Source of the DNA: Candidatus Levyibacteriota bacterium
GTDB taxonomy: Bacteria > Patescibacteriota > Microgenomatia > Levybacterales > UBA12049
Assembly: GCA_003152105.1 (NCBI GenBank)
Contig: PLZJ01000002.1
Coordinates: forward strand, 848,112 to 912,111
Reading direction: 5' to 3'
DNA length: 64,000 nt
This document shows positions 10,176 to 54,700 of the stretch, in pieces. Every line of letters begins with the position of its first letter. Position 1 is the first letter of the stretch. Position numbers and translations under genes: made by a program. The notes beneath the pieces were generated by a model. That model saw only the letters and a list, made by a program, of their open reading frames with translations. It was not told the origin of the DNA and made no database searches.

Positions 10176-10178
10176 TAA

Positions 10179-28571: not shown

Positions 28572-28643
28572 TGCGGAGCTAGGATTCGAACCTAGAGTCG
28601 CGCTGATCCAAAGTCAGGCGTGTTGCCATTACACCACTCCGCA
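28572..28643 (-). tRNA. tRNA-Gln: tRNA-Gln (anticodon UUG)
   Basis: Minus-strand sequence UGCGGAG..CCUGA CUUUGGA UCAGC..CUAGG UUCGAAU CCUAG CUCCGCA folds as a cloverleaf. U1:A72 pair is typical of bacterial tRNA-Gln. Perfect 5-bp T-stem with T-loop GTTCGAATC. Anticodon loop CUUUGGA gives UUG. CCA is not encoded. Confidence 0.75.
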
Positions 28644-34420: not shown

Positions 34421-35041
34421 TTAAGGATCTCCCTCAATAAAAGTTCTCGGATTTACGGGTATATTAAATACGTCAATTTCAAAATGTAAATGTGGTCCTG
34501 TTGCCCAACCTGTTTCCCCCTCTTTTCCTATAATTGTCTGCCCTGCAACCACTTTATCTCCTTTTTGAACGTTTCTTTCACTTAAATGCCCATAAAGTGA
34601 GACTATATTATTCCCATTATCAATAACAATATGATTTCCATACCCCCAGTTAATCTCATCTGAATAAATAACAGTCCCACTTATAGCAGCAACAATTGGA
34701 GTGCCTTCAACATTTGCGATATCTATGCCTGTATGAAGAGGTTGGTATGGTAGGTCATTTGCACCAAATTCAAGCGTTACAACTCCATGTAATGGCCAGG
34801 TAGAGGTAATAGGAACAGTTGCTATAACTTTGCCAGTTATGGGATCATGGATATCAACATTATGTGTGTGAGTATCTTGACTTACTAATTGATCAGAAAC
34901 AATCTGTATACCTGCATTAGTTAAAATAAAAATAGAAAAAATAGGAATGGTAAAAAGAAGGATAAAAGTTAAACTGACAATTTGGAATTCACGCTTAAGA
35001 GAGTGAATTGCCATTATGCTTTTTAAAAGATTAGGATTCAC
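34421..35041 (-). CDS. M23-family peptidase (LytM-like), membrane anchored; probable T4SS cell-wall hydrolase
   Basis: HTGIDIA (HxxxD) and HLHFEI (HxH) motifs. N-terminal TM. Overlaps the VirB4-like gene. Confidence 0.8.
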   Translation of the reverse strand: MNPNLLKSIMAIHSLKREFQIVSLTFILLFTIPIFSIFILTNAGIQIVSDQLVSQDTHTHNVDIHDPITGKVIATVPITSTWPLHGVVTLEFGANDLPYQPLHTGIDIANVEGTPIVAAISGTVIYSDEINWGYGNHIVIDNGNNIVSLYGHLSERNVQKGDKVVAGQTIIGKEGETGWATGPHLHFEIDVFNIPVNPRTFIEGDP

Positions 35042-36851
35042 GTATTACTTGCCTCTCAGAAGGATCTGTAGTAATGAGAGGATGCTCTTTTTCAGCTGCA
35101 ACTACTTTTATTGCAACGTGATTTTGATCAGCAATAATTAGCGCTTCACCCTTGTCGCAAGTTAATAAGAACTTTTGTTCATACTCAGATAAATTAAATT
35201 CTTTGGCTACATTTGTAATAGTGGTGGTGTCTTGACGCATTAGTATTCGAAGAGAACTTTGCGAAGCAATTGCTTTACCGTATTCATTATTTAAAAAGTC
35301 ATTTGCCTGCTGTGAAATAATAGAAACCCCTAAATAGTACTTTCTTGCTCGTCTTACAAGTCCTGCAACAAATCTAGCGCTTTCCTGGTGCTCAAGTAGC
35401 ATCCATCCCTCATCAATTACAAGTAAACGCTTGGCAATGTTACTTTTTACCTGGTTATAGACAAAGTTGGAAAGTACAACCATCATTATTTGCCTCAATG
35501 ACTCTGGTAAATCTTTAATATCAAAAATGATTAATCTGTTATTTAATTTAATATTTGTTTTACTATCAAATACACTCGAGAGTGACCCTTTGACATATTT
35601 TTCAAGTCTTGAGCAAAGATCTTTTTCCTTGAGCTCTTTAAGCGTTTTGTAAAGGTCTTTAAGAAGTGGATACTCTTTACCCTTTTTAGCTCCATTTAAT
35701 GAAAAACCCAACTTTTTGTACGTTTGTATAATCGCTCGGTCAAGTACTGCCTTTTCATTAGGGGATAATCCCTCTGCCATAAGAGAAATGATTTCAGTTA
35801 AATCTTGAATATGCATTGACAAAGTTTCATCTTGCGTTAAAGAAAGATCAAAGGGATTGATCTTTTCATTAGATTTTGCAGAAAGTTTTATATATGTTCC
35901 GTTTACTGATTTTGTTAATTGTGCATATTCGCGCTCCGGATCAATAACAATTACTTTAGTTCCTTGCATGAGCTGTCTTAAAATCTCAACTTTGGCTGTA
36001 TATGACTTTCCAGACCCGGATTGAGCAAAAATTATCGAATTAGCGTTGTGTAAAGAAAACCGATCAAGTATGACAAGCGAGTTATTTGATCTGTTTATTC
36101 CATAGAGTATTCCTTTGTCTTGTACAAGTTCTGAGGAAACAAATGGAAAAGTTAAAGCTGCAGTAGAACTATCTAAATTTCTTTTTTGGTTTAGCGCGTT
36201 ATCAGCCCTTGGAAGTACTGAAGTTAAACCGAGTAACTGTTGAAATGTTGCAGTTTTGGTGTAAAAAAGGCGTGTTGCCATAACAGTATTAAGTAGTTTT
36301 GTCTTTTTGTTGAGTTCATTTAATGAATCGGCAAAAAGTGCGATGTAAATCGACACCTGAAAGAGTTTTTCTTGACCTCGAAGTATTTTATTTTTAAGAT
36401 CAACAGCAGATTGAAGTGGATCTAAAATTTCTGTTCCTACAATACTTCCATTCTTTGTTCGTGCGCGCTTAATTGATTCAAACTCAGTAATCTTCCTGGT
36501 AAGTTTTGGAATTGCACTTGATGCTTCAATTTGTTCTATATGGTAAGAAATATCAGCATTATGATTAAAATTAATCAGCATGTTTAACCAACCAGAAGTT
36601 GCGTTGTAGGGGTAACCCGAAATAAATAATACTCTAATGTATTTATCATCAATGTAGAGGTAACTTTTCTCATTTAGGAGTCCTGAGTAGGAAATGTGAT
36701 CGATTATATCTTGTGTTCCAAATTCAAACTTTAAAGCCTCTATCTTGGCTTTCTTATTCTTTCTTCTTTTCTTTAACTTTTTGGTAACTTTGTTAAAGTT
36801 ATTAAAGCTTGAATAGATGTTTGTATAAATGTTAGATATTAGTTGATCCAT
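35031..36851 (-). CDS. VirB4-like conjugative transfer ATPase
   Basis: Walker A AQSGSGKSY, VIDPEREY and Walker B LLVIDEGWML. Sits in an operon with T4SS membrane components. Confidence 0.75.
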   Translation of the reverse strand: MDQLISNIYTNIYSSFNNFNKVTKKLKKRRKNKKAKIEALKFEFGTQDIIDHISYSGLLNEKSYLYIDDKYIRVLFISGYPYNATSGWLNMLINFNHNADISYHIEQIEASSAIPKLTRKITEFESIKRARTKNGSIVGTEILDPLQSAVDLKNKILRGQEKLFQVSIYIALFADSLNELNKKTKLLNTVMATRLFYTKTATFQQLLGLTSVLPRADNALNQKRNLDSSTAALTFPFVSSELVQDKGILYGINRSNNSLVILDRFSLHNANSIIFAQSGSGKSYTAKVEILRQLMQGTKVIVIDPEREYAQLTKSVNGTYIKLSAKSNEKINPFDLSLTQDETLSMHIQDLTEIISLMAEGLSPNEKAVLDRAIIQTYKKLGFSLNGAKKGKEYPLLKDLYKTLKELKEKDLCSRLEKYVKGSLSSVFDSKTNIKLNNRLIIFDIKDLPESLRQIMMVVLSNFVYNQVKSNIAKRLLVIDEGWMLLEHQESARFVAGLVRRARKYYLGVSIISQQANDFLNNEYGKAIASQSSLRILMRQDTTTITNVAKEFNLSEYEQKFLLTCDKGEALIIADQNHVAIKVVAAEKEHPLITTDPSERQVIRES

Positions 36852-39631: not shown

Positions 39632-39800
39632 GTTTAAAGTAGTTTTTAATAATTGAGCAGATGCTAAGCAATACAAAGTCCACTTTCATGTATCACTCCA
39701 CACCTGCTTCTAGGACAGTATCAAAGTTGTGCAGACTATATCACTAACTCTAAGGCTTTGCAATAGGGAAAATACTTAGCTAACTTGATATAATACGACC

Positions 39801-41570
39801 ATGCAAATTAACAAGTTTAATGAATTAATTGAGGAGATTGAACGCAGTTCGTTTTCCGTAAAATACGATTTCGAAATAGCTAATTTGTTCAATAATCTAA
39901 TTGAAAAATACCCAACAAATTTTACTCCTGAGCAAATACAACAATTAAAATGGGAGTTCCTTCTGTTTCGTCTTATGACAAAAAATAGCTTTGCTGCTGA
40001 CGGACTTCGTACTGATCGTTTTGTTCCTATGGCAACTTACAATAATGGAGCTATTTTCCCTGATCCAAACTCTTTTTCTGATGAGGCATTGGTATATTTT
40101 GAAAAGAGAGCGAAAGATTCTAAGAATCCTATTTTAACAACTCGGTATCTTGATTTTCTCTGGGAAAAATCAAAATCAAAGAAGAAGCACATTTTTGCTA
40201 TTGAAGCTATTGAACAATACCTATTAACAGTGGATGCTTATGACAATGAAGATGTTGTTTTTGAAAAACTAGATGGACTTCAGAGAGCAACTGAACTATG
40301 TCTTATTCTTGAAGGTAAATCAAAAAAGAAACCTCTAACTGAAAAGTTAGTAATTAGGCTCAATGAACAAATAAATGTAACAAATGAAAAAAAGAATTTC
40401 CGTTGGTTTCTGGAAATGTTTGAACTAGTAATTGCATTAAAACAGTTTTATACAGAAAAACAAATCAAAGAATTTATAAAGTTATGCGAAGAAAGCGCAA
40501 GACAATATCATAAAGATCAGAATTTTCATCTCCAAAGGTCATTTTTAGAGTTGAAATCTAAACTAGGAAAACTACTTAGATCATCAGATGCTATTAAAAA
40601 TGATGTTGATGAGCAAATAGGACTGTCTTTAATAGCTGAAGCTGAAGCAAAATCAGGAAGCGGTTTAGTTAAGGCTCACTTCCTGCAAGAAGCAGTTGAG
40701 CATTATAGAAAACTCGGTAATAAGAAAAAGGTAGAAGAACTCATAACTCAAATAAAAGAGGCCACTGGCCAGGCTATAAAAAATAAAGAATTTAAACACT
40801 TCTCCTCAACAGTTGAATTAAAAAAAGAGGATGCAGAGTCTATGAAAAAAAGCTTAGGAACTGGAAAGGACGTACCCCAAAACATGGGAACACCTCCCAA
40901 TTTTTTTCCGAACTGGAATCATGCAATCAAACTAACTGAAGACCTAAGTAAAAAATATGTCGTCTCACATTTGTTTCCAATAGTGCATTATGGAGAAAAG
41001 TATCCAGTCGGAAAACCTCAAACCTCAGAGGAAATCCACGAAGATCAAGTAATGCAGAATTTCAAGATTTCTGCGCAGCTTGCAATACACTGGCTTACAA
41101 AATTCTTATCAGAGCTTATTGAGGAAAAGAAAGTTAACATAGAAGACTTCAAGGATTTTTTTGCATTATTGAAAGAAATAGACAATGATACATATGAGAC
41201 TGTTTTAGAGGGACTTGATTCATACTTTGATGATGACCATTTTCGTGCAACAACTATTCTTGCACCACAATTAGAAGATATCCTTAGAAAATTACTTGCT
41301 GTATTTGGTGGACAGACTACAAAAGCTAATACCACAGCTTTCGAGGAAAAAACACTTGGAACGGTTCTATCAGAATTAAAACCAGCAATATCAGAACCTA
41401 TATATTACTACATTAGCTGGGTTATGAAAGATTACCGTGGACTCAATCTAAGAAATAATGTTGCTCATGGCTTTTTTAAAAAAAGACAAGGAAGTCCGTT
41501 CTATTCAACTGCTCTTCTTCATATATTTTGTCTGCTGATTGCTAATACAAAGGTATCTGTCAAAAAATAA
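39801..41570 (+). CDS. Large alpha-helical protein with C-terminal HEPN-like R-x4-H motif (Abi-like candidate)
   Basis: 589 aa. C-terminal LRNNVAHGFF fits the HEPN Rx4-6H signature. Otherwise predicted helical with no other motifs. Confidence 0.4.
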   Translation: MQINKFNELIEEIERSSFSVKYDFEIANLFNNLIEKYPTNFTPEQIQQLKWEFLLFRLMTKNSFAADGLRTDRFVPMATYNNGAIFPDPNSFSDEALVYFEKRAKDSKNPILTTRYLDFLWEKSKSKKKHIFAIEAIEQYLLTVDAYDNEDVVFEKLDGLQRATELCLILEGKSKKKPLTEKLVIRLNEQINVTNEKKNFRWFLEMFELVIALKQFYTEKQIKEFIKLCEESARQYHKDQNFHLQRSFLELKSKLGKLLRSSDAIKNDVDEQIGLSLIAEAEAKSGSGLVKAHFLQEAVEHYRKLGNKKKVEELITQIKEATGQAIKNKEFKHFSSTVELKKEDAESMKKSLGTGKDVPQNMGTPPNFFPNWNHAIKLTEDLSKKYVVSHLFPIVHYGEKYPVGKPQTSEEIHEDQVMQNFKISAQLAIHWLTKFLSELIEEKKVNIEDFKDFFALLKEIDNDTYETVLEGLDSYFDDDHFRATTILAPQLEDILRKLLAVFGGQTTKANTTAFEEKTLGTVLSELKPAISEPIYYYISWVMKDYRGLNLRNNVAHGFFKKRQGSPFYSTALLHIFCLLIANTKVSVKK

Positions 41571-41636
41571 TTATGAATTGCATGATAAGTTTGATGTTAT
41601 AATTAACTAGATTACAAGTGTTACAAATTAACAATA

Positions 41637-43211
41637 ATGAAAATTTCTTCCTTATTTCAATCAAAAAAACCAGTAGTCACTGAAAAAGTAGAGCCAATCC
41701 AAAAAGAATTTGTTCAAGTCGAACAAGTTTCCCCTCAAGTAAATAAAGAATCGCAGCTTAGAACGGAAAAATTAGTCTCTGATGCATCAAAACCTAGGGG
41801 AGGTGTATGGAAATATCCACCATTATCATTATTGAGTGATGAAGAAGCTAAACCAACTACACTCACAACAGATGTTAAAAATTATGCGAGAATCATTGAA
41901 TTAACTGCAGAAGTTTTTGGTTTAGATTCAAAAGTAATTGAACTAAATATAAATAGGTTTACAATACAGTTCTTGTTAGAAATGTCAGATATTAAGGAAG
42001 CATCAAAATATATTTCTTTAACAAATGAGTTTGCATATGCTTTAAATTTTCAATCTGAAAAGGTACAAGTTTATGAAGTAATTGAGGAAAAGACAAATTT
42101 AATAGCTGTTGAGTTACAAATAGGTAGCATTACATCTCCTTCATTAAAAACAGTATTATCATCTACTGTAAGTCAAAAAAGTAAATCTAAACTTACTGTA
42201 TTTTTAGGATTAGACAAAAATGCTCATATATTTGCTGCTGATATTAAACTTATGCCCCATATGTTAATAACTAGTATGGTAAATGATAGCATTACTAATT
42301 TTTTTAATTCAATAATTATGTCACTTCTATTTAGAGCATCACCAGCTGAAGTAAAGTTGGTTCTAATTGATACAAAACGCGTAGAACTTAATTCATTTAA
42401 TGGAATTCCCCACTTAATGACTCCAGTTATTGTAGAACCTGAAAAGGTGCTTTCGGCACTTAAATGGTCTATGGGAGAGATGGATAGACGCTTTAAGGCC
42501 TTCTCCGAGAATGGAATAAGAAATATTGAAGAATATAACGAACTAAATGGTTATCAGGCCTTACCATATATTTTAATCATGATAAATGAATTTGCTGAAA
42601 TGGCTGCATATGCACCTATTGAATTAGAGGATGCTTTAATAAGAATTGCAAAAATGGGACATTCTACAGGCGTTCATTTAATTATTGCTACACAAAATCC
42701 CCATAACAAAATTTTTAATAAACTTCTGCAAGCACCAATTTCTGTTAAAGTAGTAGTCAATAAGTCTTCTCAAGATAATAATTCAGTTAATAATTATGAA
42801 TTAGTCTATTCAGATTTAGTACATTCAAAACCAGTATTTATATTTAATACATCAGTTAAAGAAAGCGAGATTAAAATGCTTATTGAATTTTTAAGAATGC
42901 AAGGTAGTCCAGTTGAATATACAGAAGAAGTTTTAACAAAACCGGTAGTTGCAAGAAAAGATAATGGAAATACCTCGGTAAGCAGTAGAGATGCACTTTT
43001 TGAAAATGCTGTTAGAGTAGTTTGTCAGCATGACCGAGCTTCTGCATCTCTTTTACAAAGAAGACTTCAGGTTGGATATTCAAGAGCAGCCAAAATTTTA
43101 GATGAACTTGAAGAAGCAGGAATTGTTGGTCCGGGAGACGGAGCAAAACCACGAGATGTATTAACTCAAAATGCAGAAGCTAAAATAGCACAACTAAATA
43201 AAAATGAATAA
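41637..43211 (+). CDS. FtsK/SpoIIIE-like protein with degenerate ATPase motifs and an intact gamma (wHTH) domain
   Basis: Aligns along FtsK alpha/beta/gamma. Walker A replaced by ITSMVNDSIT. Walker B DE becomes NE (LIMINEFAEM). Arginine finger ATQRP becomes ATQNP. Gamma domain SASLLQRRLQVGYSRAAKILDELEEAGIVGP is conserved. Confidence 0.8.
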   Translation: MKISSLFQSKKPVVTEKVEPIQKEFVQVEQVSPQVNKESQLRTEKLVSDASKPRGGVWKYPPLSLLSDEEAKPTTLTTDVKNYARIIELTAEVFGLDSKVIELNINRFTIQFLLEMSDIKEASKYISLTNEFAYALNFQSEKVQVYEVIEEKTNLIAVELQIGSITSPSLKTVLSSTVSQKSKSKLTVFLGLDKNAHIFAADIKLMPHMLITSMVNDSITNFFNSIIMSLLFRASPAEVKLVLIDTKRVELNSFNGIPHLMTPVIVEPEKVLSALKWSMGEMDRRFKAFSENGIRNIEEYNELNGYQALPYILIMINEFAEMAAYAPIELEDALIRIAKMGHSTGVHLIIATQNPHNKIFNKLLQAPISVKVVVNKSSQDNNSVNNYELVYSDLVHSKPVFIFNTSVKESEIKMLIEFLRMQGSPVEYTEEVLTKPVVARKDNGNTSVSSRDALFENAVRVVCQHDRASASLLQRRLQVGYSRAAKILDELEEAGIVGPGDGAKPRDVLTQNAEAKIAQLNKNE

Positions 43212-43383
43212 ATTAAATCAATCTGTAAAAATAGATTATTGTGAGAAATGCGAAAAAGATACAGAGATGTATAAGGAAGTAGCAAATAATATTATTGATG
43301 AAACCGTACTTGCTTATGACTATCCAAACACAACAAGTATAACCTTAACTTGCAAAGTATGCGGTACTGTAAGGTGGGAATAA
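43205..43383 (+). CDS. Small zinc-ribbon protein (CxxC...CxxC)
   Basis: 59-aa ORF MNKLNQSVKIDYCEKCEKD...LTCKVCGTVRWE. Its ATG overlaps the FtsK-like stop and it ends 5 nt before the Mrr-like gene. Below the size cutoff of the ORF track. Confidence 0.35.
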
Positions 43384-43387
43384 ATAA

Positions 43388-44140
43388 ATGACTAAAATAA
43401 TAATTACTGAAAACACTGAACTTCAGAAAATTGTAAATGATTATCAAAATTACATAGAAAAATTTTGTGAACTTTCAGAAAGAAGTGCATCCTATCTTGA
43501 TGAGTGGGGAGATGAAAATCTTGATTCCTTATCTCAATATAAAAAGGAGTGTGTTATTAGAATTGCAAGAAAAGTATACGATAATGAACGGTTCACACCT
43601 ATTAAAGCCAAACTTGATTATCTTATAAACTGCTGGTTTGATATTGATAATCAGAATGAATTAAAAATAATAGTTAACACAAAAGCCCCATCATGGGTAC
43701 AAAGCTTATTTAATGATTATTTGCCTCAAGAGTTTAGTGAGTATCACAAAAAAAGAAAAGAAAATCCGCAAGATCTTGTACCAGATTTAAATAAAATGAC
43801 TGGCGTAGAATTTGAAAATTATGTTGCAAATTTGCTCAAGCAGATTGGATATAATGTTTCAGGAACCTCAGCAACTGGAGATCAAGGTGCAGACTTGATT
43901 GCCACTAAAAACGATAAAATTTATGTAATACAAGTTAAAAGATATTCAGGAACTGTAGGTAATAAGGCAATACAAGAAGTAGTAGCTGCAAAGAAATATT
44001 ATAATGGAGATGTTGCAGCTGTAGCCACAAATTCATCTTTTACTCCATCAGCAGTTAAACTAGCAAAAATTAACAATGTCATTCTATTACCTGAATCATC
44101 TTTTCAGTCTATTGATGCCTTTTTAAATAATAAATTTTAA
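43388..44140 (+). CDS. Mrr-like restriction endonuclease domain protein (Mrr_cat C-terminal domain)
   Basis: C-terminal GVEFENYVANLLKQIGYNV...GDQGADLIA...IYVIQVKRYSG matches the Mrr_cat PD-(D/E)xK fold. Confidence 0.7.
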   Translation: MTKIIITENTELQKIVNDYQNYIEKFCELSERSASYLDEWGDENLDSLSQYKKECVIRIARKVYDNERFTPIKAKLDYLINCWFDIDNQNELKIIVNTKAPSWVQSLFNDYLPQEFSEYHKKRKENPQDLVPDLNKMTGVEFENYVANLLKQIGYNVSGTSATGDQGADLIATKNDKIYVIQVKRYSGTVGNKAIQEVVAAKKYYNGDVAAVATNSSFTPSAVKLAKINNVILLPESSFQSIDAFLNNKF

Positions 44141-44161: not shown

Positions 44162-45412
44162 TTAGTCGTACAAATCTTTCAATTCCTTCACATTTCCCCC
44201 AAAAGCAACTCGGTCAAGGATAAGATCATTCATTCCCATCATAAGAGCGGGAGTAATAACAAATTCTCCATATCTGTCATTAATATTATCAATAGCTAGT
44301 GCAGCTTTCCTTTTTTTCCCCTCATCAAGGTCAAAAAGAGATGGTTGTGATTTTCCGGATGGAGTAAATGCATAACAGGTGACGCTAAGTTTAGAAACTG
44401 GTTTAAGTTCTGGTTGCTGGTTAAAAACAAGTTGCACTCGCTCATATAGTTCAGTTGTTGTAAACATTTCCATATCTTGCAGTCTGCCTCTGTGCCAATG
44501 CGACCAATCTGAGTAAACGCAGGAAACATGTACACCATGTGCAGTCCATCCCTGACTTCGAAGTCGTCTTCCCATTTTTTCTGTTAATTTCATAAGTAGC
44601 ATTGAAAGCATGCGTTTATCTGTTGTTGCTTTTGGGAGCGCATATTGTTGCCCAATACTTTTTGTCTGAAATTCTACCTCATCAACTTCGTACCCTCTTA
44701 TTCGGTAATACCAATCTCTACCGCATTTACTTCGAAATACTTGTTTCTCAAGAAGATCTACTGGAGCGTTGAGAAAATCTATCGGTGTAAAAATACCATG
44801 CGCATTAAGCCTTGCTTCAAACCTGGTATTAATTCCATTGAGGTCAACAAGCGTGACGATTTTATATACATCAAGTAAATTCTCATGTGTTATGACATCT
44901 AGTCCGTCCGGTTTATGAAGTGAAGCAGCAAGTTTTGCAAGAAATCTGTTTGTTCCTATTCCTATATTGCAACTCATCCATTCTCCAATTTCTTCTCGTA
45001 TCCTTTGCTTTATTTCCTTCCCTATTGCAATCAGATCTGGTCTAAGTCTTTGAACGCTTTCCAAATTAACAACTACTTCATCAATTGATTTTGGAGTAAC
45101 ATCCGGTGAATACTCTCTAAATATTTTGTTAAATTTTGTATATACATCCCGGTAGAGTGTAGGAGTTGGTGTATGGACGTTAACTTGAGGATAAAGTAGT
45201 TTTGCCTCTCTTACAGACATTCCTGTTTTAATACCATATCGCTTGGCTTCAATACTTGGTGCAACAACGCAACCGGCAGGAGAATCGTAAGCCGCAATAA
45301 CAAGTGGCTTTCCCCTGTAATGAGGATTAGCCTGTTGTTCACATGTTGCAAAACAAGAGTTTAAATCGACATGCATAACAAGTGGAGTATTTCGGTTGAT
45401 TGGTAAATCCAT
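44162..45412 (-). CDS. umuC: Y-family DNA polymerase (UmuC/UvrX-like, error-prone)
   Basis: N-terminal MHVDLNSCFATCEQ and overall Y-family pattern. Confidence 0.85.
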   Translation of the reverse strand: MDLPINRNTPLVMHVDLNSCFATCEQQANPHYRGKPLVIAAYDSPAGCVVAPSIEAKRYGIKTGMSVREAKLLYPQVNVHTPTPTLYRDVYTKFNKIFREYSPDVTPKSIDEVVVNLESVQRLRPDLIAIGKEIKQRIREEIGEWMSCNIGIGTNRFLAKLAASLHKPDGLDVITHENLLDVYKIVTLVDLNGINTRFEARLNAHGIFTPIDFLNAPVDLLEKQVFRSKCGRDWYYRIRGYEVDEVEFQTKSIGQQYALPKATTDKRMLSMLLMKLTEKMGRRLRSQGWTAHGVHVSCVYSDWSHWHRGRLQDMEMFTTTELYERVQLVFNQQPELKPVSKLSVTCYAFTPSGKSQPSLFDLDEGKKRKAALAIDNINDRYGEFVITPALMMGMNDLILDRVAFGGNVKELKDLYD

Positions 45413-45413
45413 A

Positions 45414-45674
45414 TTAATTACTTATCCCATCTGAAACTTCTTCTAAATTCCAAGAAAGATTAAATGTGTCAAAGCGAAGTCTAAAATAAAACTTGTTTGA
45501 ACTTACGTGAAAGAGATGATGCACTGTTCCGCCTACTTTTTCTCTATGTACGTAAGCTAGTTTTTCAATCTTGTAATCTTTTCCATTCCAGCGAATACGA
45601 GCCGGGAATAATTTATCTCCCATCTTTTTAAACACACCAATGACTTCAACTTTTTCATTGATTTTCTCAAGCAT
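45414..45674 (-). CDS. yolD: YolD-like protein (UmuD-analogous accessory of Gram-positive Y-family polymerases)
   Basis: 86 aa immediately upstream of the Y-family polymerase gene, with YolD-like size and pattern. Confidence 0.5.
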   Translation of the reverse strand: MLEKINEKVEVIGVFKKMGDKLFPARIRWNGKDYKIEKLAYVHREKVGGTVHHLFHVSSNKFYFRLRFDTFNLSWNLEEVSDGISN

Positions 45675-45684
45675 AGAATATCTC

Positions 45685-46260
45685 CTATCGGTATCTTCTG
45701 AGTGATGAAACTACCACACCGCCAATAGTTAGCGAATATTTTGGTTCAATTGGCTGATATTTTGGATTAGCAGGAATAAGCCTTACTTTTCCGTTTTTCA
45801 ATTCATAGTATTTAAGTGTCCATTCATTATCAACAAGTGCTGCAACAATATCATTTGTACGAGGTTGTAAATCAAGATCAACTACAACTCGGTCTCCGTC
45901 ATAAAGTCCAGCACCAATCATAGAATCTCCAGACACTGTTAAGATAAAAGAAGAATTTGGGCTATGCACTAAATATGTATCTAAAGAAAGTTCTTCAACT
46001 ACTTCATTTGCAGCATCTTGTGGAAATCCTGCCTTAATCATTCCGTATGAGCGAAGAGTTAACGATAAATTTTTAGGAAGTAATCTTCCGTTTTTATCTT
46101 TTTCAATAATTCCTTCTTTAATTAACTGGTGTGCAAGATAAAACGCAGAACCTTTTGTTTTGTAATGAAACATTTTTCGAAGTTCCTCATAGGAGGGCAT
46201 TCTGTTATGAGTTTTATAAAAGTATCTTAACCTTTCAATTGCTAGTTCTTTTTCTACCAT
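45685..46260 (-). CDS. lexA: LexA-like S24 peptidase repressor
   Basis: N-terminal wHTH. Ala-Gly cleavage site (MIKAGFP). Ser-Lys dyad motifs GDSMIGAG ... NEWTLKYYE. Confidence 0.85.
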   Translation of the reverse strand: MVEKELAIERLRYFYKTHNRMPSYEELRKMFHYKTKGSAFYLAHQLIKEGIIEKDKNGRLLPKNLSLTLRSYGMIKAGFPQDAANEVVEELSLDTYLVHSPNSSFILTVSGDSMIGAGLYDGDRVVVDLDLQPRTNDIVAALVDNEWTLKYYELKNGKVRLIPANPKYQPIEPKYSLTIGGVVVSSLRRYR

Positions 46261-46273
46261 ACTAATTTTTAGT

Positions 46274-46294
46274 TATAATTGAACGATCGTTCAA
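46274..46294. promoter_or_regulatory. Cheo-type SOS box TTGAACGATCGTTCAA with adjacent TATAAT, in the divergent lexA-like/plus-operon promoter region
   Basis: Perfect palindrome GAAC-gatc-GTTC at 46281-46292, 21 nt upstream of the lexA-like start. TATAAT at 46274-46279. Confidence 0.75.
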
Positions 46295-46368
46295 AAGTCA
46301 AGGGATTATACGAATATAAAGCGAACGTAAAATCATGGTTTATAAACTTTAGTGGTATAATTGCAATT

Positions 46369-47121
46369 ATGAAAACTGAAGTTCAGGCTGAAATGGCAGC
46401 AATATTACACGCATATAACTCAAACTATGATGGGGGGGAAGATGATGTTTTGGTTGCAACTCCTGACGATAACACGAAAATTGTTGCTGAGTATATCAGA
46501 ATGAGATTATTGCCGGCAGTGCATAAAGCATCTGAATTTGAAGCCACATTTGATAGCACAGTTATTTGGCCGGAACAAGAATTAGCTGACTATGACAGGG
46601 ATTTAGAAGCTATTAGAGCAATGACAAAAAAACAAAGGGTTAGTTTGGATGATCAATTGCTTGAAATAAGTGGTCGCAAAAGGGATAGAGGTGGAATAAT
46701 GGTGCTAAGATCATCGCATGGCGATCAGGTTGCAGGATTTGCAATTGATTCACATACTTTAAAATCTGCAGAAACACAGGGTTTTGGCCTTCATGCATTG
46801 GCCGCAATGAACCTGAGCGCTGAATTAGATGACCTTGAAGATTATGACAGAGAAACTGTCGGAGTTATATTACGGGGGAATATCTTTTTTGATGTTGAAG
46901 GATTTAAGACCCCCATTGTCCAGTTATTTCTTCCGTGGCCGGTTCAAGATCATTCAGAATTTGATCCTCAGTTTCAACGAGTTGGTTCTCATTTAATTTC
47001 TCAGAGAAGAATGATTCCAGTTGATTATGATTGTAATCTGGTAGACGGGACCTTTTCATTTAATGGAGCTGATAGATATGAAGTTAAACCACTCAAGACA
47101 ATTAAGCAGCTAATTAAATAA
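46369..47121 (+). CDS. Hypothetical protein, SOS-box-proximal
   Basis: Preferred ATG at 46369 (MKTEVQAEMAA...) because the track's TTG start at 46279 lies inside the SOS box. No motifs recognised. Confidence 0.4.
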   Translation: MKTEVQAEMAAILHAYNSNYDGGEDDVLVATPDDNTKIVAEYIRMRLLPAVHKASEFEATFDSTVIWPEQELADYDRDLEAIRAMTKKQRVSLDDQLLEISGRKRDRGGIMVLRSSHGDQVAGFAIDSHTLKSAETQGFGLHALAAMNLSAELDDLEDYDRETVGVILRGNIFFDVEGFKTPIVQLFLPWPVQDHSEFDPQFQRVGSHLISQRRMIPVDYDCNLVDGTFSFNGADRYEVKPLKTIKQLIK

Positions 47122-47153
47122 CACGCGCTGTTTGATATAATAACCCTAACAAT

Positions 47154-47831
47154 ATGTGCGGACGATACGGATTTACCAGTGAAATTGCAGATGTAAAAAC
47201 CAGATTCGATATTGAAAGATGGTTAGATAAAATTTATGATAAGGAAGAACTCTATAATATCGGTCCGGGTACTAGAAATCCAGTAGTAGTCAGACGATCT
47301 CCAAATTCAGGTCTTCTTATGAAATGGGGTTGGACATGGGATGTGCCGTGGATGGAAAAGCCACTATTTATTATTAACGCCAGAAAAGACAAGCTTACTA
47401 CCTCGAAAGCATATAAAAAGCCATTTTTATTTCAGCGTTGTATTATTCCTGCAAATTTCTTTTATGAATGGAAAGCAATAGGTAAAGAGAAATATCCGTA
47501 TCTTTTTAAGTGTAAAGATCAAAAATTATTTGGTTTTGCAGGACTTTACTTTACGGAAAAAGACGCAGAAGGTAAAGAAGCAGAATATTATGTAATCATT
47601 ACAACCGATGCAAATGAAATTATGCAACCAATACATCACCGAATGCCGGTTATTTTGGATAAGGAGGATGAAGACACATGGTTAAACCCTGACAATGTAG
47701 AACAGGAACAGCTTTTGCCCCTACTTAAACAATACTCATCGGACAAAATGGAATGTTACCCTGTTTCGCAAGCAGTTAATTCTACTAGAAATGATAATGG
47801 AGACTTAATAAAACCTATTGATAGTAAATAA
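47154..47831 (+). CDS. SOS response-associated peptidase (SRAP/YedK/HMCES family)
   Basis: Hallmark N-terminal MCGRY (Cys2 nucleophile), SRAP-like length and pattern. Confidence 0.85.
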   Translation: MCGRYGFTSEIADVKTRFDIERWLDKIYDKEELYNIGPGTRNPVVVRRSPNSGLLMKWGWTWDVPWMEKPLFIINARKDKLTTSKAYKKPFLFQRCIIPANFFYEWKAIGKEKYPYLFKCKDQKLFGFAGLYFTEKDAEGKEAEYYVIITTDANEIMQPIHHRMPVILDKEDEDTWLNPDNVEQEQLLPLLKQYSSDKMECYPVSQAVNSTRNDNGDLIKPIDSK

Positions 47832-48279
47832 TATGGCCCGAATTGTTAGAAATTCAACATGGGATGAAGTTAAAAGACACTTAGAAAATATTGATGCAAC
47901 TGGTCTTAATGATGGTTACCCAAGAAACGATCCTTTATTCAATTTATTAAGTTCACTTTTTACCTCCTGGAATTTTTGTGAACTAACCGAAAATGAATTC
48001 AATAGCTTATTGATTCCTCAAGATCCACATATATTACTAAAAGATAAAGACCTAAATGATATTGAAGGTGAAGATAGTAATTTCGTTGTACAAAAATATC
48101 ATAATGATTTAGTAAATGGGGATAGTTTACCTACAATTGTCATTAGAGAAAGATTTCCAAATAATTTAGTTGATTGTTCTTTTTATATAGAGGACGGTGC
48201 TCATAGAGCTTTAGCCTTAAAAAAATTTTATTTAACTAATAGTTATATACCCGTCAATGCTTTTATTGGTTATTTTTAA
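47818..48279 (+). CDS. Hypothetical protein (possible ParB/Srx-like fold)
   Basis: The motif EDGAHRALALKK is reminiscent of ParB-like nuclease domains. This is weak evidence. Confidence 0.3.
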   Translation: MIVNNMARIVRNSTWDEVKRHLENIDATGLNDGYPRNDPLFNLLSSLFTSWNFCELTENEFNSLLIPQDPHILLKDKDLNDIEGEDSNFVVQKYHNDLVNGDSLPTIVIRERFPNNLVDCSFYIEDGAHRALALKKFYLTNSYIPVNAFIGYF

Positions 48280-48286: not shown

Positions 48287-51200
48287 TTAAACAGGTGCAT
48301 CTTCCCAAAGCTTTCTTAATTCTTCATTAATTTGTAATTTTTTTACGGCTTTATCCAATATCTGCCTTACTCTTTCTCTCGTAAGACCTCCATAAATTTC
48401 ACCTATAGCTTCTAAAGTCATTGGTTCATCGCTTCCGATACCATGTCTCATTTTGAGCATTTCTAACTCTCTTTCCGTCAATAACCCTCCTACAATACCC
48501 TCTATTTGCTCAATATTATCATCGTCTGTTGCACCAGGCTGGTAATCTTCGTAGTTATCTGCAACAAATTCTCCAAGAGTTGTTTCTGTATCTGATCCAA
48601 TTGGCCTATCCAGAGATGCCACTCTAGTAACTTTTCCTTCAAACAAATCCATAACAATATCAATTCTTTCTAGCTGTGCTTCTTCCAATAAGCTTCTTAA
48701 CTCTTTTTTAGTTGGAGATCTATTTTCCCGTACTTCGAACTCAGTCACGATTTTCATAGCTTTTCCATATACTTCTCGCGCATGGATAGGAATTCTAATC
48801 ATACTTCCGTCATTTTTAACTGCCCTATCAATACTTTGAGCTATCCAAGGAGTAGCATACGTTGAAAACTTATTTCCTGTATGATAATCGAATCCTTCAA
48901 CTGCTCTTTTTAAACCAAAATAACCCTCTTGAACTCTATCTTCTATGGTTAAAGCATGATACTTTTTAGCGATATGAATCACTAATCTAAGATTACATAA
49001 AGCAACAAGTTCTTCAATAGATTCACCATCTCTAGAGACATTTGCAAATAATCCTTCAGATTTTGGTCTGATTGTTTTTAAAAAGTCAGTATCTTGGAAA
49101 AGACTATCAATAGTTTTTCCTTCTTCCAAAAGTTTGAATATAATATTCTCCTGTTGTCTACTCAGTAGTGGATATTGTGCGGCTTGCGTCATGTATCTTC
49201 GGAAAGAGTCAACTTCCTCAAAACTCATTCCATTAAAATCTTCAGTTGAAAAAACCACTACGTCTTCACCATCGGACTCATAAGAATTTCTTTCTCTTTC
49301 TGCCGTACCATTTCCTCTAAATCTTGAAGAAAATTGCTGTCTAACACTATTTGGTTCTGGTGGCTTATTTGATTTTACTTGCGACAATTCATCCCTTAAT
49401 ATTTGCATACCATGTTCGTTAGCTGTAAATATCTGTCTTCGTCCAACATTACTCTTTGTAATATACTGTGGATGACTTACGGCTAGCTCATTTAAGCGTT
49501 TATATATTGCAGATCCGGTTCTTAAACCAAATTCCCGTGCTAAATCAAATATTGGTACTTGAGTGAATCCATCTTCAACACTACTACCGTATTCCACCTG
49601 TAAAGTGGTTAAGAGTTGAGGCGCTATGAACCATTGCCATCCTTTTTCACTTCTTCTAACTGAATCTGGGTCAGCAGCCTGTAGCTCTTTTAACCTTTTA
49701 TATATCCTGCTTCTCTTTCCTTCGCCAACTTGCTGAACTAATTCATTTATTGGAAGAGGTATTAACCCTTCAGGAGCAGCTAATCCTCTAATTCTATCCA
49801 GCAAAAGTTCATATCCTTCTGCTGATATATAATTAGATCTATTTATGCTTTTAAAATGTTGTGGATTTTCTTCATGCAAAGCTCTTAAGTGATACAATAC
49901 TCTGCTTGATTCCATTCCGAATTCAAACGCTATGTCATTGGGAGTAAATCTTTGAAATCCTTCTGGAATATTAATTGCTTGCTCTCTTTCTTCAGCGTAT
50001 CTGTTTATTACTTCCATTACTTCTTCAAGATTTGTTATAACTTTCAGTCCTTCTATATGAATTAAAGGGGAAGATCCTCTAAAAGAACCCGAATATGTTC
50101 GTCCTGTAAATTCTTTGGCTTTTTTCGGAGCAAATGCAGTGCCTGCAACTTCAGCAAAAGTTAAAGCTCGGCCCTTTGCATGCTTATTTTCATCAACGAC
50201 ATCAATAATGATTGCTTCCTTATCAGGATTATTAGGATCAAGCCTCAACACTCTTCCTCCTCTTTGAATTGCGTTTACTTTTGACAAAGTCGGTGCAAGA
50301 TTAATCAGCAAGTTAGCATTAGGTGCGTCAATACCTTCTGCTAAAAGTTTTTTGCTTAGTAAAACTTTAATCTTTCCACTTTTAAAATCATCTAAGTATT
50401 GTTTTCTTGTTCTTTTATCAAGCCTCCCATGAAACGCTCTAGCTTCTATTCCTTCTGCACGAAACATCTCTTCAAGTTCAATAGCATGCTTAACTGATAA
50501 AGTAGTTATAAAAGCGGAGGAATCTGGGAAATGATTTTTATATATGTCGACTGCTGCTTGATTTCGCTTTGCAATATTTAATGCCCTCTCAAGTTGTTTT
50601 GGGTCATACTCACCAGTTGAAGAGATAATTGGAACCTGTGACATATCTATATCGGTTTGAGCAATAAACACCTTAAATGGAGAAATTAATCCTTCTTCAG
50701 CAGCTTCTTTAATTGTTACATAATGCATTTTCTTCTCAAGAAGTAAACCTACATGCTTATCGGTTGAATACTCTGGTGTAGCGCTAAGACCCAACTTAAT
50801 AGCTCCCTTAAATTGCCTTATTGCATCCATTCGAGCTGGTGTTAAAGCCTTATGAGCCTCATCACATATTACAAATCCGTAATCTGATGGATTAATGGTG
50901 CCTTCTTTTACGCCTTTTAATAGGTAATCATATGTTGTTATCGTAACATCTCGATCTAACTGCTTAACATGAGTGTAGGCCAATCCGGTTGGTATATTAG
51001 GAACAAACTGTGTAAATGTATCCTGCATTTGCTGTACTAAATCTTGAGTTGGAGTTATTATCAATGTTTTGGCTCTTAAAGCTTTTACCATTTCTGCAGC
51101 TAATACAGACTTTCCAGTTCCTGTAGGAAATTCAATATAGCCTTCTGTTGAACCCTCAGCTAAATTCGATCTAATATCTTCAAATACCGTAAACTGATGC

Positions 51201-51550
51201 TCTCTTAAAACCCTATCAACATCTCCAATTTTATGTGCTGCAATATAATCATCAAGATTTGCTAGAGCTAATTTTTGCTGTATCTCAGAAGCCATTTCGT
51301 CAGTTAAACTTCCATCCTTACGAGTAAGCCTAACTAATTGGGGGTATAGAGATACTCTGACAGGATATCGAGTTTCCAATTCATCCTGGGGAAATGCAAC
51401 CAAACTATCTATTCCGTCTATTGAATCATGGACGGCGGGTAACAAATTTTGGCCTACATTTTGTTTCACGAATGTATTTACTTCTCGCAATTGTCCAGCA
51501 AGCTCGGTAGTGCTTTTTGTCCTTGATGTTTTAATTTCAGTTTTTACCAT
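48287..51550 (-). CDS. Fusion protein: SF2 DEAH helicase + tandem wHTH-like repeats + complete sigma-70 (regions 2-4) domain
   Basis: Walker A PTGTGKS, DEAH VICDEAHK, LSATP and motif VI QRGGRVLR. C-terminal sigma region 2/3 KFSTYATPWIAQSIDRAV and MIRIPIHAREV, region 4.2 TLEAIGEIYGGLTRERVRQILDKAVKKL. Confidence 0.8.
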   Translation of the reverse strand: MVKTEIKTSRTKSTTELAGQLREVNTFVKQNVGQNLLPAVHDSIDGIDSLVAFPQDELETRYPVRVSLYPQLVRLTRKDGSLTDEMASEIQQKLALANLDDYIAAHKIGDVDRVLREHQFTVFEDIRSNLAEGSTEGYIEFPTGTGKSVLAAEMVKALRAKTLIITPTQDLVQQMQDTFTQFVPNIPTGLAYTHVKQLDRDVTITTYDYLLKGVKEGTINPSDYGFVICDEAHKALTPARMDAIRQFKGAIKLGLSATPEYSTDKHVGLLLEKKMHYVTIKEAAEEGLISPFKVFIAQTDIDMSQVPIISSTGEYDPKQLERALNIAKRNQAAVDIYKNHFPDSSAFITTLSVKHAIELEEMFRAEGIEARAFHGRLDKRTRKQYLDDFKSGKIKVLLSKKLLAEGIDAPNANLLINLAPTLSKVNAIQRGGRVLRLDPNNPDKEAIIIDVVDENKHAKGRALTFAEVAGTAFAPKKAKEFTGRTYSGSFRGSSPLIHIEGLKVITNLEEVMEVINRYAEEREQAINIPEGFQRFTPNDIAFEFGMESSRVLYHLRALHEENPQHFKSINRSNYISAEGYELLLDRIRGLAAPEGLIPLPINELVQQVGEGKRSRIYKRLKELQAADPDSVRRSEKGWQWFIAPQLLTTLQVEYGSSVEDGFTQVPIFDLAREFGLRTGSAIYKRLNELAVSHPQYITKSNVGRRQIFTANEHGMQILRDELSQVKSNKPPEPNSVRQQFSSRFRGNGTAERERNSYESDGEDVVVFSTEDFNGMSFEEVDSFRRYMTQAAQYPLLSRQQENIIFKLLEEGKTIDSLFQDTDFLKTIRPKSEGLFANVSRDGESIEELVALCNLRLVIHIAKKYHALTIEDRVQEGYFGLKRAVEGFDYHTGNKFSTYATPWIAQSIDRAVKNDGSMIRIPIHAREVYGKAMKIVTEFEVRENRSPTKKELRSLLEEAQLERIDIVMDLFEGKVTRVASLDRPIGSDTETTLGEFVADNYEDYQPGATDDDNIEQIEGIVGGLLTERELEMLKMRHGIGSDEPMTLEAIGEIYGGLTRERVRQILDKAVKKLQINEELRKLWEDAPV

Positions 51551-51780: not shown

Positions 51781-54700
51781 ATGACAAGCAACATTGAGTC
51801 TCTTAACATTCCTGAAGCTAAAGCAGCAGCTACTCTTGCAGAAAGTGCAATTATAGAAGAGCAAAAACCAGTACTAACCGAGGTAAGAACAAATGAACTT
51901 CTCGCAAGAGCAACGGGTTTATTACATATGTATGATGATTTTATAAAATCCCTGCCTCTAAAAGGAAGAGATTATTTCGCATTACCCAATCTCCCTCAGA
52001 GCATCGAAGACGCACATAGAGAATTTTCGGAGGAAGATACCATTGATACTACAAATATGTTAATAAACACTCCTTTTATTAATGAAGCACTACAAACACA
52101 TCATCCCAAAGCAGTTGGCATGTTTTTACGAGGAGTTATGACTGTAAACAAGGAGGCTGCAGATAAAGGACTTAGCCAAACTCCTATTGAGATTGAAGAT
52201 GAGTCATTCGAAGATCAATTAACCAATGTTCTTATACTTCAAATTGCAAATTATCCCTCTTTATACCCAGCAATTAGACCGCACGCATTTAGTTTGGTTA
52301 AAGATTCAGAACAAATTGAAGAATCTGAAAAGGAAGAAAAAAGGAGACTTTATGACCTTGTGAGCAAAGTTGAAGGAAGAGCTGGAATGAAGCTATTCGG
52401 AATGGGATATTATACGGGTACTACTCGTGAGCTTTTTAATCACATGAACCAACGCGCATTCTTACATGAATTTGGTGAGGAACAAATTGTTGCTTTACAG
52501 GCAGCATTTTCTGATCCTGAATATCTTGATCCATATGGTGTGGGAGAAAAAAATAGTCATGCCTTAGCTGGTATTGGACTTATTGCGGCATCAAAAAAAG
52601 CAGGCGCTCCCATTGATGCTTCAGTGGTTTCCCAAATGGAAGAAAGACACGGGGAATGGTTTAACTCTAGATTAAAGTATATCTTTGCCACTGATCCAAA
52701 AACTTCAAACATTGACCCCTATATTGAAGAATTGCTTGCCAGACCGCTTAACAAGAATCAATCAGAAAGCATTTTATACCTTGCTTTAACAAATGGAACT
52801 TCAATTCATCCCGACTCATATGCCGCAGAAACAATAAAAGAGTCAGGCTTACCGCTTGAGCAAGTTTTTACACTTACCAAAGTAGCTCTTGATGCAACAA
52901 ACGGCAACATAGAAAGATTAAATCCCGTCATACATGAATTACTTCAAGGATCAAGTGAAGGTGAACTTTCAAAAAAAGCTATATCTTCGCTTGTCTACGC
53001 CTGTATTGGATTTGATGTTGATATACCTAATTTCTTGCAACCCTCTATTAAACAGCATTATTCTCAAGTTGCAGAAGGAATATTAACCGATAAACCTAGG
53101 CGTACATACACAAAAAATGATGATACACTTGACTATCCAGTGCATCCTATATACCGTCTATTTTCGGAAGGATTACAAGCGCTACCAAAAAGTATTGCTG
53201 ATGTGTTTAGTCAGGATGAGATAAATCGAGATGAGATCGCAACACAAATTATGACCCATCTTTTTAAAGATGGATTCTATACCCATTATTTTGATCCAAT
53301 TCTCTCTCAAGAATATCCGACTGCAACCTTGAGTATTAATGAATTAGATGGGAAACTTTGGCAACTTGTTCATCCTGATATTTGGAATCTTCTAAGAGAA
53401 GCAGATACGGTAACTTTGCTTAATGTTATTAAAGATGTTTTACCTGGTGGGATGGTACAACTTATTAAATATCCAAAAGGAACAGAGATATATGGAACAA
53501 GTAATGTTTCGATAGACGCTTGTTTGCCTCCTGATCTTTTTGAAGCAATAGCAAAGCTTCATATAGAAACTGCAACTGAAAATGATAATATTTCTTGGGC
53601 AGATAATGTAGTTTTTGAAAAAGGTCTACCAAATGGTAAATCTAAGGAAACTCCAAAACCATATACACAACTGATGGATTTCTCTCAAAGAATATGGAGA
53701 CATATACAATCTGACCTTATTAGTAAAAACATCTCCAAAAGTATATTTAACAGGCTATGGAAGCTACCAAATGAATCTGGTATTGGACTTGAGATATTTG
53801 ATCCGGAACTAAAAGATTGGATAGTAATACCAGGAAAAAGTCATATAGATCAAGAAGGTTATCCCGATGATATCAAACTTGTCATTGCAAATCCTGTAAG
53901 CTACCTAGAAAAATATTTAGCTTTTTTGGGAAATATACGCTATAAATATAGCGGGTGGTATCAATCAATTGATGCCTTTAATATATGGAGAAATGCAACT
54001 CCATGGGATTTTTTGCACCCTGAACAATATTTAGATCATCAGACGTTTCAAAGTAATGATAAAACCTTTCATCACCTTGAGCATTGGACAGAAATACTTC
54101 AAGCACGGGAACTTGGTGAAACACTAAAGGTTAGATATAGTGAAGAAGGTGGTTTTACTGAAAGCCAGCATGATCTTCTTTTTACGCTTTCCGCTTTGGA
54201 AGATCCAACGGACACTGATCAACTACCGTCTGTTAGATACGGACTGATTGATCAAAACACTGCGGTAGTTTATGCAATTCAAATGCCATTAATTGATAGA
54301 ATGGCTCCAAGCAATGTAAAAGTAGCGCTTGAGCGTCAAAACAATTTCTTAAAATATTACACAAATTTCGCAAAAGCTGCAGTAGATCACGATGAGTTTT
54401 TTACTAGCATTGCTGGGGACATATCCGAGGTTATCTTGCATCCTCCAGAAGATTTAGACTTCAATGAGTATGTAAGGCATATCTCTGCAAAAATTCTTAA
54501 AAACAATGGCGTCAAATCATACACAGAACTACAGCGAAAATATCAACCCTATTTGAAACAACCAAATAAATCAGAAGACATAGGGAAATCATACGTCGCA
54601 AATATAATACTTAATTTAGTCTATGGAATTGAGATGTTTGATAAAGCCTCAAGTATTTCACCGCTTTTTGAAGAACGTTCAGAAAGAATGAAACGGGTTA

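Follow-up and report, generated by a model that had tools for sequence, protein, structure and literature searches.

The four plus-strand genes g1 to g4 at positions 39801 to 44140 of the window (the whole stretch of 64,000 nt analysed here, from contig PLZJ01000002.1 of a Candidatus Levyibacteriota bacterium) are best interpreted as two independent units situated on an integrative and conjugative element (ICE): a HEPN gene (g1), and a "captured FtsK" nuclease scaffold module (g2–g4), in which a catalytically dead FtsK paralogue is paired with an Mrr-type nuclease and which, as cargo of the ICE, would cut incoming or competing DNA. A probability of about 0.55 is assigned to this interpretation; the two-unit architecture as such is well supported, and the doubt mostly concerns the role in defence.

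The preliminary description of this interval had regarded the four genes as one candidate defence or abortive-infection module. This unity did not hold: among 104 fetched loci (including the window) the four genes occur together nowhere else, and only the dead FtsK and the Mrr-like nuclease are conserved. The more general idea of conflict-related cargo on a conjugative element is supported in flavour. What is new is a rare, lineage-restricted pair formed by the nuclease and an inactivated FtsK without membrane anchor (iFtsK, a name coined in this analysis for the clade), set in a wider, hitherto uncharacterised family of nucleases with a new N-terminal domain.

Organization of the cassette

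A scan for open reading frames (ORFs) and the public gene call of the contig yield the same four genes, at the positions given in the preliminary description. Of the spacings reported there (67, 8 and 5 nt), the 8-nt overlap between g2 and g3 stood, whereas the gaps between g1 and g2 and between g3 and g4 measure 66 and 4 nt. The protein assignments were borne out as well: g1 is HEPN-like and has an Rx4H motif, g2 is a dead FtsK whose gamma domain is intact, g3 is a zinc ribbon, and g4 is an Mrr_cat nuclease whose N-terminal domain matches no recognised family. The flanking genes agree with a location on a conjugative element between type IV secretion system (T4SS) genes and an SOS module. The features of the cassette are the following:

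39786 to 39794, plus strand: extended -10 promoter-like box TGATATAAT, with 6 nt between the end of the box and the g1 start codon (box start 15 nt before it)
39801 to 41570, plus strand: g1, 589 aa, DUF7380 + DUF4209 (C6orf70-type HEPN), PADLOC candidate PDC-S39 (Pfam, PADLOC)
41451 to 41468, plus strand: HEPN Rx4H motif RNNVAH, g1 residues 551-556, within the DUF4209 match at residues 491-576
41595 to 41603, plus strand: extended -10 promoter-like box TGTTATAAT, in the 66-nt gap between g1 and g2
41637 to 43211, plus strand: g2, 524 aa, iFtsK, inactivated anchor-less FtsK paralogue with alpha domain, dead beta motor and gamma domain (Pfam, alignment)
42273 to 42296, plus strand: destroyed Walker A motif of g2, SMVNDSIT in place of GTTGSGKS (alignment)
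42582 to 42599, plus strand: degenerate Walker B motif of g2, INEFAE in place of IDELAD (alignment)
42687 to 42704, plus strand: lost arginine finger of g2, ATQNPH in place of ATQRPS (alignment)
42987 to 43190, plus strand: intact FtsK gamma winged-helix domain of g2 (Pfam FtsK_gamma, 89.5 bits)
43204 to 43383, plus strand: g3, 59 aa, CxxC...CxxC zinc ribbon without family match (CEKC at residue 13, CKVC at residue 50)
43388 to 44140, plus strand: g4, 250 aa, helical N-domain followed by an Mrr_cat PD-(D/E)xK nuclease domain (Pfam Mrr_cat, residues 134-239)

Co-occurrence of the inactivated FtsK and the nuclease

The question of unity was decided by the neighbourhoods of the g4 homologs. An FtsK-like gene is situated directly upstream of the g4 ortholog in all nine iFtsK loci (the window, L003, L093, L094, L095, L096, L021, L033, and L032). 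Its product measures 519 aa in L003 and 531-545 aa in L093, L094, and L095; L021 and L033 are cut contigs, in which the iFtsK is seen through its gamma domain, and L032 possesses a truncated, motor-only copy of 321 aa with degenerate Walker A (GGKDQERT) and Walker B motifs. An iFtsK precedes all six g4 homologs that reach 60% identity and have an available context.

In the 103 other loci, homologs were found neither of g1 nor of g3 (tblastn on the 92-locus set, gene lists for the later ones; the set of 5.8 billion proteins searched with the iFtsK profile was not searched for g1 or g3). In five orthologous junctions inspected at the base level, the spacing of iFtsK and nuclease lies between an overlap of 4 nt and a gap of 42 nt; g3 is lacking there, and such junctions leave no room for it. 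Thus, g3 is an insertion between g2 and g4 specific to the genome of the window, and it is probably accessory. As other members of the nuclease family carry zinc-ribbon-like motifs at their N-terminus, g3 plausibly plays an accessory role like that of these fused motifs.

In the other loci whose sequence upstream of iFtsK is available, the place that g1 has in the window is occupied by other genes. In L003, a 326-aa ORF and a small-terminase-like gene are found upstream of the iFtsK. A gene for a TrpR/YerC-like helix-turn-helix (HTH) protein is situated directly upstream of the iFtsK in L096 (682-966), L094 (2-115), and L095 (1-60), and could be a regulator of the module in one subclade.

A comparison of the genes up to four positions away from the nuclease in 75 non-redundant loci showed two recurrent neighbours, iFtsK (7 loci) and serine recombinases (5 loci); all others are locus-specific. 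The relatives of the type found in the candidate phyla radiation (CPR) adjoin resolvases, recombinases, integrases, a RepSA-type Rep gene, coupling proteins, and toxin-antitoxin genes. Such neighbourhoods exhibit the pattern of mobile-element cargo or of a defence island and leave room for a role in the biology of the element.

In L006, an SLFN_AlbA_2 gene and a PycTM/cyclase (Pycsar-like) pair lie directly downstream of the g4 homolog (9039-11588); DUF433/DUF5615 toxin-antitoxin genes complete the cluster, which is compact, resembles a defence island and is carried by a mobile element of the CPR type.

Structure and evolution of the inactivated FtsK

In g2, all three Pfam matches exceed their cut-offs: the alpha domain (PF17854, 23.7 bits), FtsK_SpoIIIE (PF01580, 135 bits), and FtsK_gamma (PF09397). 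Aligned to canonical FtsK, it lacks around 170 N-terminal residues including the membrane domain, such that the alignment starts at the linker; besides the loss of Walker A, it has NE for the DE of Walker B and QNP for the QRP of the arginine finger, and 11 residues of the motor are deleted. The true host ftsK is located elsewhere in the genome in a housekeeping context, beside the genes for RNase J and PNPase, and has its nearest relatives among Levybacteria/Patescibacteria proteins.

Every one of the full-length iFtsKs is devoid of the Walker A lysine, the Walker B DE, the arginine finger, and the transmembrane (TM) domain. The mode of inactivation differs among them, Walker A reading GTTDSGIS, GTTDYGIF or ASNVTELV and Walker B NG, DG or FE. 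They have in common the point of N-terminal truncation, a derived alpha-domain motif (EFAYAL), insertions in the alpha domain at the same position, and deletions in the motor at the same site. Neighbour-joining trees unite them as a clade in all 200 of 200 bootstraps, within the diversity of Levybacteria-type FtsKs. The shared truncation, motif, and indel sites together with this clade indicate that the iFtsKs are related by descent. A sister relationship of g2 to the host FtsK, as expected from duplication within the genome, was recovered in 0 of 200 bootstraps and is ruled out.

A search with the single g2 sequence was dominated by canonical FtsKs of 44-50% identity, with the genome's own ftsK as the best match. 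The impression of a singleton duplicate that this gave was overturned by the neighbourhoods of the g4 homologs and by a profile search: when a profile built from five full-length iFtsKs was run against 5.8 billion proteins, five iFtsKs scored 851-965 bits, and the next matches were canonical FtsKs at no more than 684 bits.

Orthologous iFtsKs evolve under purifying selection. The ratio of nonsynonymous to synonymous divergence (dN/dS) amounts to 0.21-0.33 overall, to 0.2-0.3 in the motor, and to 0.08-0.33 in the gamma domain; the N-terminal linker, at 0.4-1.7, is near-neutral or weakly constrained. The ORFs are unbroken in at least six orthologs that share 41-46% identity. Values well below 1 show that iFtsK is not a pseudogene. 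It would therefore be mistaken to see in g2 a decaying ftsK duplicate that lies beside g4 by accident. This explanation could draw on the loss of all catalytic motifs and on the fact that g2 is as similar to canonical Levybacteria-type FtsKs (44-52% identity) as to the other iFtsKs (41-46%). Selection and co-occurrence already refute it: the ORFs are unbroken and dN/dS is low, the clade is monophyletic with a common truncation, alpha-domain changes and motor deletions, the nuclease is adjacent in nine of nine loci, and g2 is never sister to the host gene in the tree.

The similarity between g2 and the host FtsK is distributed unevenly. Residues 463-502 in the gamma domain are 90% identical to the host protein (proportions of differing nonsynonymous and synonymous sites pN=0.07 and pS=0.59), and a motor segment (residues 223-302) is 75% identical. 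Recent gene conversion between the gamma domains of g2 and host ftsK was ruled out, since pS is 0.55-0.8 over the whole gene including gamma; with synonymous sites in gamma saturated at pS 0.55-0.75, the likeness of the proteins reflects constraint.

Between the iFtsKs of L095 and L096, which are close orthologs, the synonymous divergence is 0.66 in the gamma domain, as against 0.07-0.16 in the remaining gene, and the gamma domain there looks as if it had been swapped by recombination.

The nuclease and its family

The Mrr_cat match of g4 scores 93 bits (cut-off 21), and the fold is PD-(D/E)xK. Its catalytic residues (E, D, QxK) are conserved, with E143, D165, D169, Q182, and K184 invariant over 35 homologs, and dN/dS among orthologs is around 0.14. 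The N-terminal half (about residues 8-132) is a helical domain with the signature KFxE.AER...DEWGDE; it gave no family match, and a winged-helix reader of the Mrr_N type was not found in it. Around 100 homologs were obtained from the search, and the family comprises roughly 50-60 sequence clusters.

An N-terminal extension is lacking in the nucleases linked to iFtsK, whereas most other family members begin with a hydrophobic (TM) helix followed by a lysine-rich coiled coil, with a zinc-ribbon-like CxxC motif, or with a degenerate winged helix. In three proteins (P0136, P0137, and P0139) the order is gamma domain, coiled coil, N-domain, and Mrr_cat, preceded in P0137 by a clear N-terminal TM helix; this order is collinear with the gene order from iFtsK to nuclease. 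In P0191, Mrr_cat is followed by a C-terminal gamma domain, and the opposite order indicates an independent event, such that gamma and nuclease have been fused twice. The two of these genes whose position on a contig was looked up (P0137 and P0191) are solitary and have no FtsK neighbour. A literature search found no direct description of a dead FtsK in Patescibacteria or of fusions between FtsK-gamma and restriction domains. The simplest reading is that N-domain and Mrr_cat constitute a constant effector with a swappable delivery or targeting module, iFtsK being one such module, provided in trans.

At the level of the Mrr_cat domain (34-37% identity over residues 62-242), homologs of g4 are found on 370 PLSDB plasmids, two thirds of which are conjugative or mobilizable.

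On the Priestia megaterium plasmid pBM-Cp-1-5 (L097, 6169-7756), an Mrr_cat gene annotated as restriction endonuclease overlaps a DUF3991-TOPRIM gene, with a MobP2 relaxase at a distance of a few kb.

The HEPN gene as a separate unit

Both Pfam matches of g1 lie above the gathering cut-offs (DUF4209, 45.9 bits, cut-off 22.3; DUF7380, 34.3 bits, cut-off 27). Among the PADLOC profiles it matches two models of PDC-S39, PDLC05012 with E=1.3e-46 (residues 71-562 on profile positions 73-578 of 615) and PDLC05011 with E=3.5e-44, and it represents a divergent CPR member of this family with 21-25% identity to plasmid-borne homologs. These distant homologs are solitary and adjoin integrases and toxin-antitoxin genes in unrelated contexts. 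DUF4209 corresponds to the C6orf70 family of HEPN proteins, which Anantharaman et al. predicted to be catalytically active RNases and noted in operons related to restriction-modification (R-M) (PMC3710099). A literature search found no experimental study of PDC-S39 or DUF4209. We infer that g1 encodes an RNase of the abortive-infection type. Weak Csm2 matches within g1 (E=0.02-0.09) were dismissed as noise.

On the plus strand of the 64-kb window TGNTATAAT occurs six times, and the TGnTATAAT boxes at the start of g1 and in the gap between g1 and g2 are two of these six. Going by how often it occurs in the window, a stretch of 66 nt would contain such a box with a probability of around 0.006. 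The two boxes argue for separate predicted promoters, and g1 is a unit apart from the conserved pair in g2–g4.

Genomic setting

The window is a piece of a Patescibacteria chromosome of around 1.14 Mb, available as a metagenome scaffold under ENA ERZ28653421 (WOOD18-1 scaffold_5). Upstream of the cassette, the minus strand carries genes for a VirB4-like ATPase (35031-36851), TraC-like, PrgI-like, TrbL-like and pilin-like proteins, and an M23 peptidase. Downstream follow a Y-family polymerase, an S24 LexA-like gene, and SRAP, and farther on an 886-aa type IV coupling protein (T4CP), a large serine recombinase (59319-60959), and a relaxase-like gene whose Replic_Relax match is weak (22.2 bits, under the Pfam cut-off of 25.3). 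With its T4SS genes, T4CP, relaxase-like gene, and serine recombinase, the region around the cassette is ICE-like.

Proposed function and alternative explanations

The effector of the proposed module would be g4, an Mrr-type PD-(D/E)xK DNA endonuclease whose intact active site stands behind the previously undescribed helical N-domain. Across the family, this nuclease core would be delivered by interchangeable N-terminal modules (membrane anchor with coiled coil, zinc ribbon, or FtsK-gamma winged helix), and in a small CPR clade the delivery module would be provided in trans by iFtsK, descended from cellular FtsK. Without anchor and ATPase motifs, with a constrained alpha/beta fold and a highly conserved gamma domain, iFtsK may serve as a DNA-binding scaffold that does not pump and possibly still forms a ring or oligomer. 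In a physical complex with the nuclease, its gamma domain would read DNA and position, recruit or license the nuclease on the target, g3 being a local add-on that may stand in for the zinc ribbons fused to the nuclease elsewhere; the outcome would be cleavage of incoming or competing DNA. A bolder version, which we hold to be improbable, has the gamma domain read polar motifs of the host similar to the FtsK-orienting polar sequences (KOPS); these motifs would signal self versus non-self, or topology, and in this way license or block the nuclease. If true, this would be a form of restriction that sorts DNA by motifs of chromosome architecture instead of modification, and the fusions of TM helix, gamma domain, and nuclease would be its minimal membrane-anchored form.

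Several observations weigh against the interpretation as a defence module separate from g1. The iFtsK clade is tiny (around nine loci, mostly on short contigs) and apparently confined to one narrow lineage, such that the co-occurrence may partly reflect shared ancestry and not repeated selection. L032 keeps the dead motor without gamma, and the gamma domain is thus not strictly required. In the gap between g1 and g2, a terminator search found none, and read-through co-transcription is possible. When 35 family members were compared with PADLOC, the matches (ZorD, PDC-S02, mREase_IV) were at the level of the Mrr_cat domain only. Finally, Mrr_cat genes are frequent in the transfer regions of Firmicutes plasmids, which suits a role in conjugation rather than in defence.

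It is this last role that the most serious competing explanation, in our judgement still rather unlikely, attributes to g2–g4: the module would do housekeeping work for the conjugative element, with a nuclease that processes DNA as the element is transferred or becomes established, or that excludes or kills competing elements, and with a dead FtsK that anchors this nuclease to DNA, to the host FtsK or to the division site. The family is indeed found repeatedly in regions resembling ICEs or integrative and mobilizable elements with T4CP, relaxase, Rep, and recombinases, the g4 homolog of L026 adjoins the same pair of Y-family polymerase and 86-aa gene as is present in the window, and the plasmid homologs, including the Priestia gene beside DUF3991-TOPRIM, point in the same direction. 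However, the plasmid matches are at the domain level only, and the neighbours in the 75 loci, with iFtsK and the serine recombinases excepted, nearly all differ, which suits cargo better than a fixed core function; many relatives lie on large Acidobacteriota contigs where the neighbours within four genes are nearly all unique to the locus, and the L006 gene is clustered with the SLFN_AlbA_2, Pycsar-like, and toxin-antitoxin genes. It is more doubtful still that iFtsK itself forms the centre and manipulates the host chromosome, by a gamma domain that activates Xer-type recombination or binds FtsK-orienting motifs, or by poisoning host FtsK hexamers in a dominant-negative manner, which would favour the inheritance of the ICE and leave the nuclease as an addiction or toxin partner. 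The gamma domain of Escherichia coli FtsK both reads KOPS and activates XerD, and in g2 the near identity of gamma to that of the host despite saturated synonymous sites, together with the 75% identical motor segment, leaves it conceivable that host-like interaction surfaces persist. Against this, the ICE possesses a large serine recombinase and not a Xer-dependent system, L032 lacks gamma and is nevertheless paired with the nuclease, and an antitoxin-like partner is not evident; moreover, the fused relatives drop the motor and always retain the nuclease, which makes the nuclease and not FtsK the core.

That all four genes act jointly as one co-transcribed defence system of HEPN RNase, dead FtsK, zinc ribbon, and Mrr nuclease, as the preliminary description proposed, appears quite improbable. 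The common direction, the tight spacing, the lack of a detected terminator between g1 and g2, and the reported presence of DUF4209-family HEPN genes in R-M-related operons (PMC3710099) would agree with such a system. On the other side stand the absence of g1 and g3 homologs from all other iFtsK-nuclease loci and the other fetched loci, the different genes upstream of iFtsK in L003 (small terminase-like gene and 326-aa ORF) and L096 (TrpR-like HTH), the fit of g1 to a PADLOC family of its own whose distant members are solitary, and the extended -10 box that the gap between g1 and g2 possesses for itself.

Comparison with known systems

The preliminary description held that the cassette matches no named defence system. 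This is only partly true: the pair of dead FtsK and nuclease has a named conceptual relative in the HerA/FtsK capture systems. In these DndH-related counter-invader systems (Nucleic Acids Res 2024), HerA/FtsK proteins, including FtsK-alpha versions derived from cellular FtsK, have repeatedly been acquired and coupled to active restriction endonucleases and winged HTH domains (PMC10853773), and they are proposed to be targeted to invader DNA, which they would pump towards the nuclease (PMC10853773; PMC12839542). With them, g2 and g4 share the capture of an FtsK-class module and its coupling to a restriction-type nuclease and a winged helix (gamma) on mobile DNA. Despite this similarity, there are fundamental differences: the motor of g2 is dead and cannot hydrolyse ATP, such that DNA pumping, the core of the published model, is impossible; g2 keeps the full alpha-beta-gamma body, canonical gamma domain included, in a polypeptide of its own; g4, its partner, is a small protein in which Mrr_cat is joined to a novel helical N-domain; and a Pfam scan of the cassette and of 20 flanking proteins showed neither an Orc/Cdc6 ATPase nor an iREase nor a DndF/G-like component.

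Concerning the Mrr or Type IV restriction endonucleases (Mrr_cat, PF04471), g4 resembles them in its catalytic domain with the D...QxK site, in the lack of a nearby methyltransferase, and in the attachment of a DNA-binding specificity module. It differs in the unrelated helical N-domain at the place of the Mrr_N winged-helix reader, the reading of DNA being apparently outsourced to FtsK-gamma, in trans or fused. A classical R-M system, the alternative raised in the preliminary description, would have a cognate methyltransferase adjoining g4; no methyltransferase domain or other R-M partner was found in the cassette or the Pfam-scanned flanking genes, nor was a methyltransferase domain present in the precomputed Pfam list of the locus.

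Inactive FtsK and MinD/ParA effector domains have been reported in NTP-dependent conflict systems (eLife 2020, PMC7159879), which are thus similar in having recruited inactive FtsK ATPase domains. There, these domains are effectors of STAND/NTPase ternary systems in multicellular bacteria, whereas here the partner is a nuclease and no STAND NTPase is present. To the cellular FtsK/SpoIIIE translocases, g2 corresponds in its alpha, beta, and gamma domains, with a gamma nearly identical to that of the host, and it departs from them as a pseudo-enzyme paralogue on a mobile element, without membrane domain, Walker A, Walker B, and arginine finger. The match of g1 to PDC-S39/DUF4209 (C6orf70-ERMARD type HEPN) is near full-length, with DUF7380, DUF4209, and the Rx4H motif, and nothing notable differs.

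Further features of the window

Directly behind the cassette, the SOS-like block of the ICE (44162-47831) comprises the Y-family polymerase, an 86-aa ORF, the S24 LexA-like gene, a 280-aa protein without assignment, and SRAP. The same pair of polymerase and small ORF is found in L026 (5811-7052), where it adjoins a stand-alone, longer g4 homolog (292 aa), and suggests a shared ICE backbone.

The ORF that follows (47818-48279, plus strand, 153 aa) has no Pfam match and contains an "EDGAHR" motif reminiscent of ParB/sulfiredoxin-type domains. On the minus strand (48287-51550), a 1087-aa protein joins a helicase core of the ResIII/SNF2 type (ResIII, Helicase_C) to sigma-70 regions 2 and 4 at its C-terminus, an unusual fusion within an ICE. 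Between this helicase-sigma gene and the relaxase-like gene, a 1097-aa ORF (51781-55074, plus strand) gave no Pfam match. In another part of the window, a tRNA-Gln gene (28570-28643) precedes the gene of a Fic/DOC protein that carries a fused TrmB-type winged helix (28705-29745).

Implications

Any annotation or cloning of the cassette should proceed from two units, PDC-S39 and iFtsK-nuclease. The nuclease family defined here, so far uncharacterised, combines a new helical N-domain with Mrr_cat and possesses swappable N-terminal modules (membrane anchor, zinc ribbon, FtsK-gamma). Both the pseudo-FtsK and the gamma-nuclease fusions are surprising and testable, in a clade that is tiny and belongs to uncultured CPR bacteria, and the locus constitutes a concrete, clonable example from the poorly known repertoire of defence and mobile elements in Patescibacteria. 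If the module works as proposed, a mobile element would have turned a core DNA pump of cell division into a non-enzymatic scaffold that reads DNA on behalf of a restriction-type nuclease, and the theme of HerA/FtsK capture would be extended to a pseudo-enzyme form.

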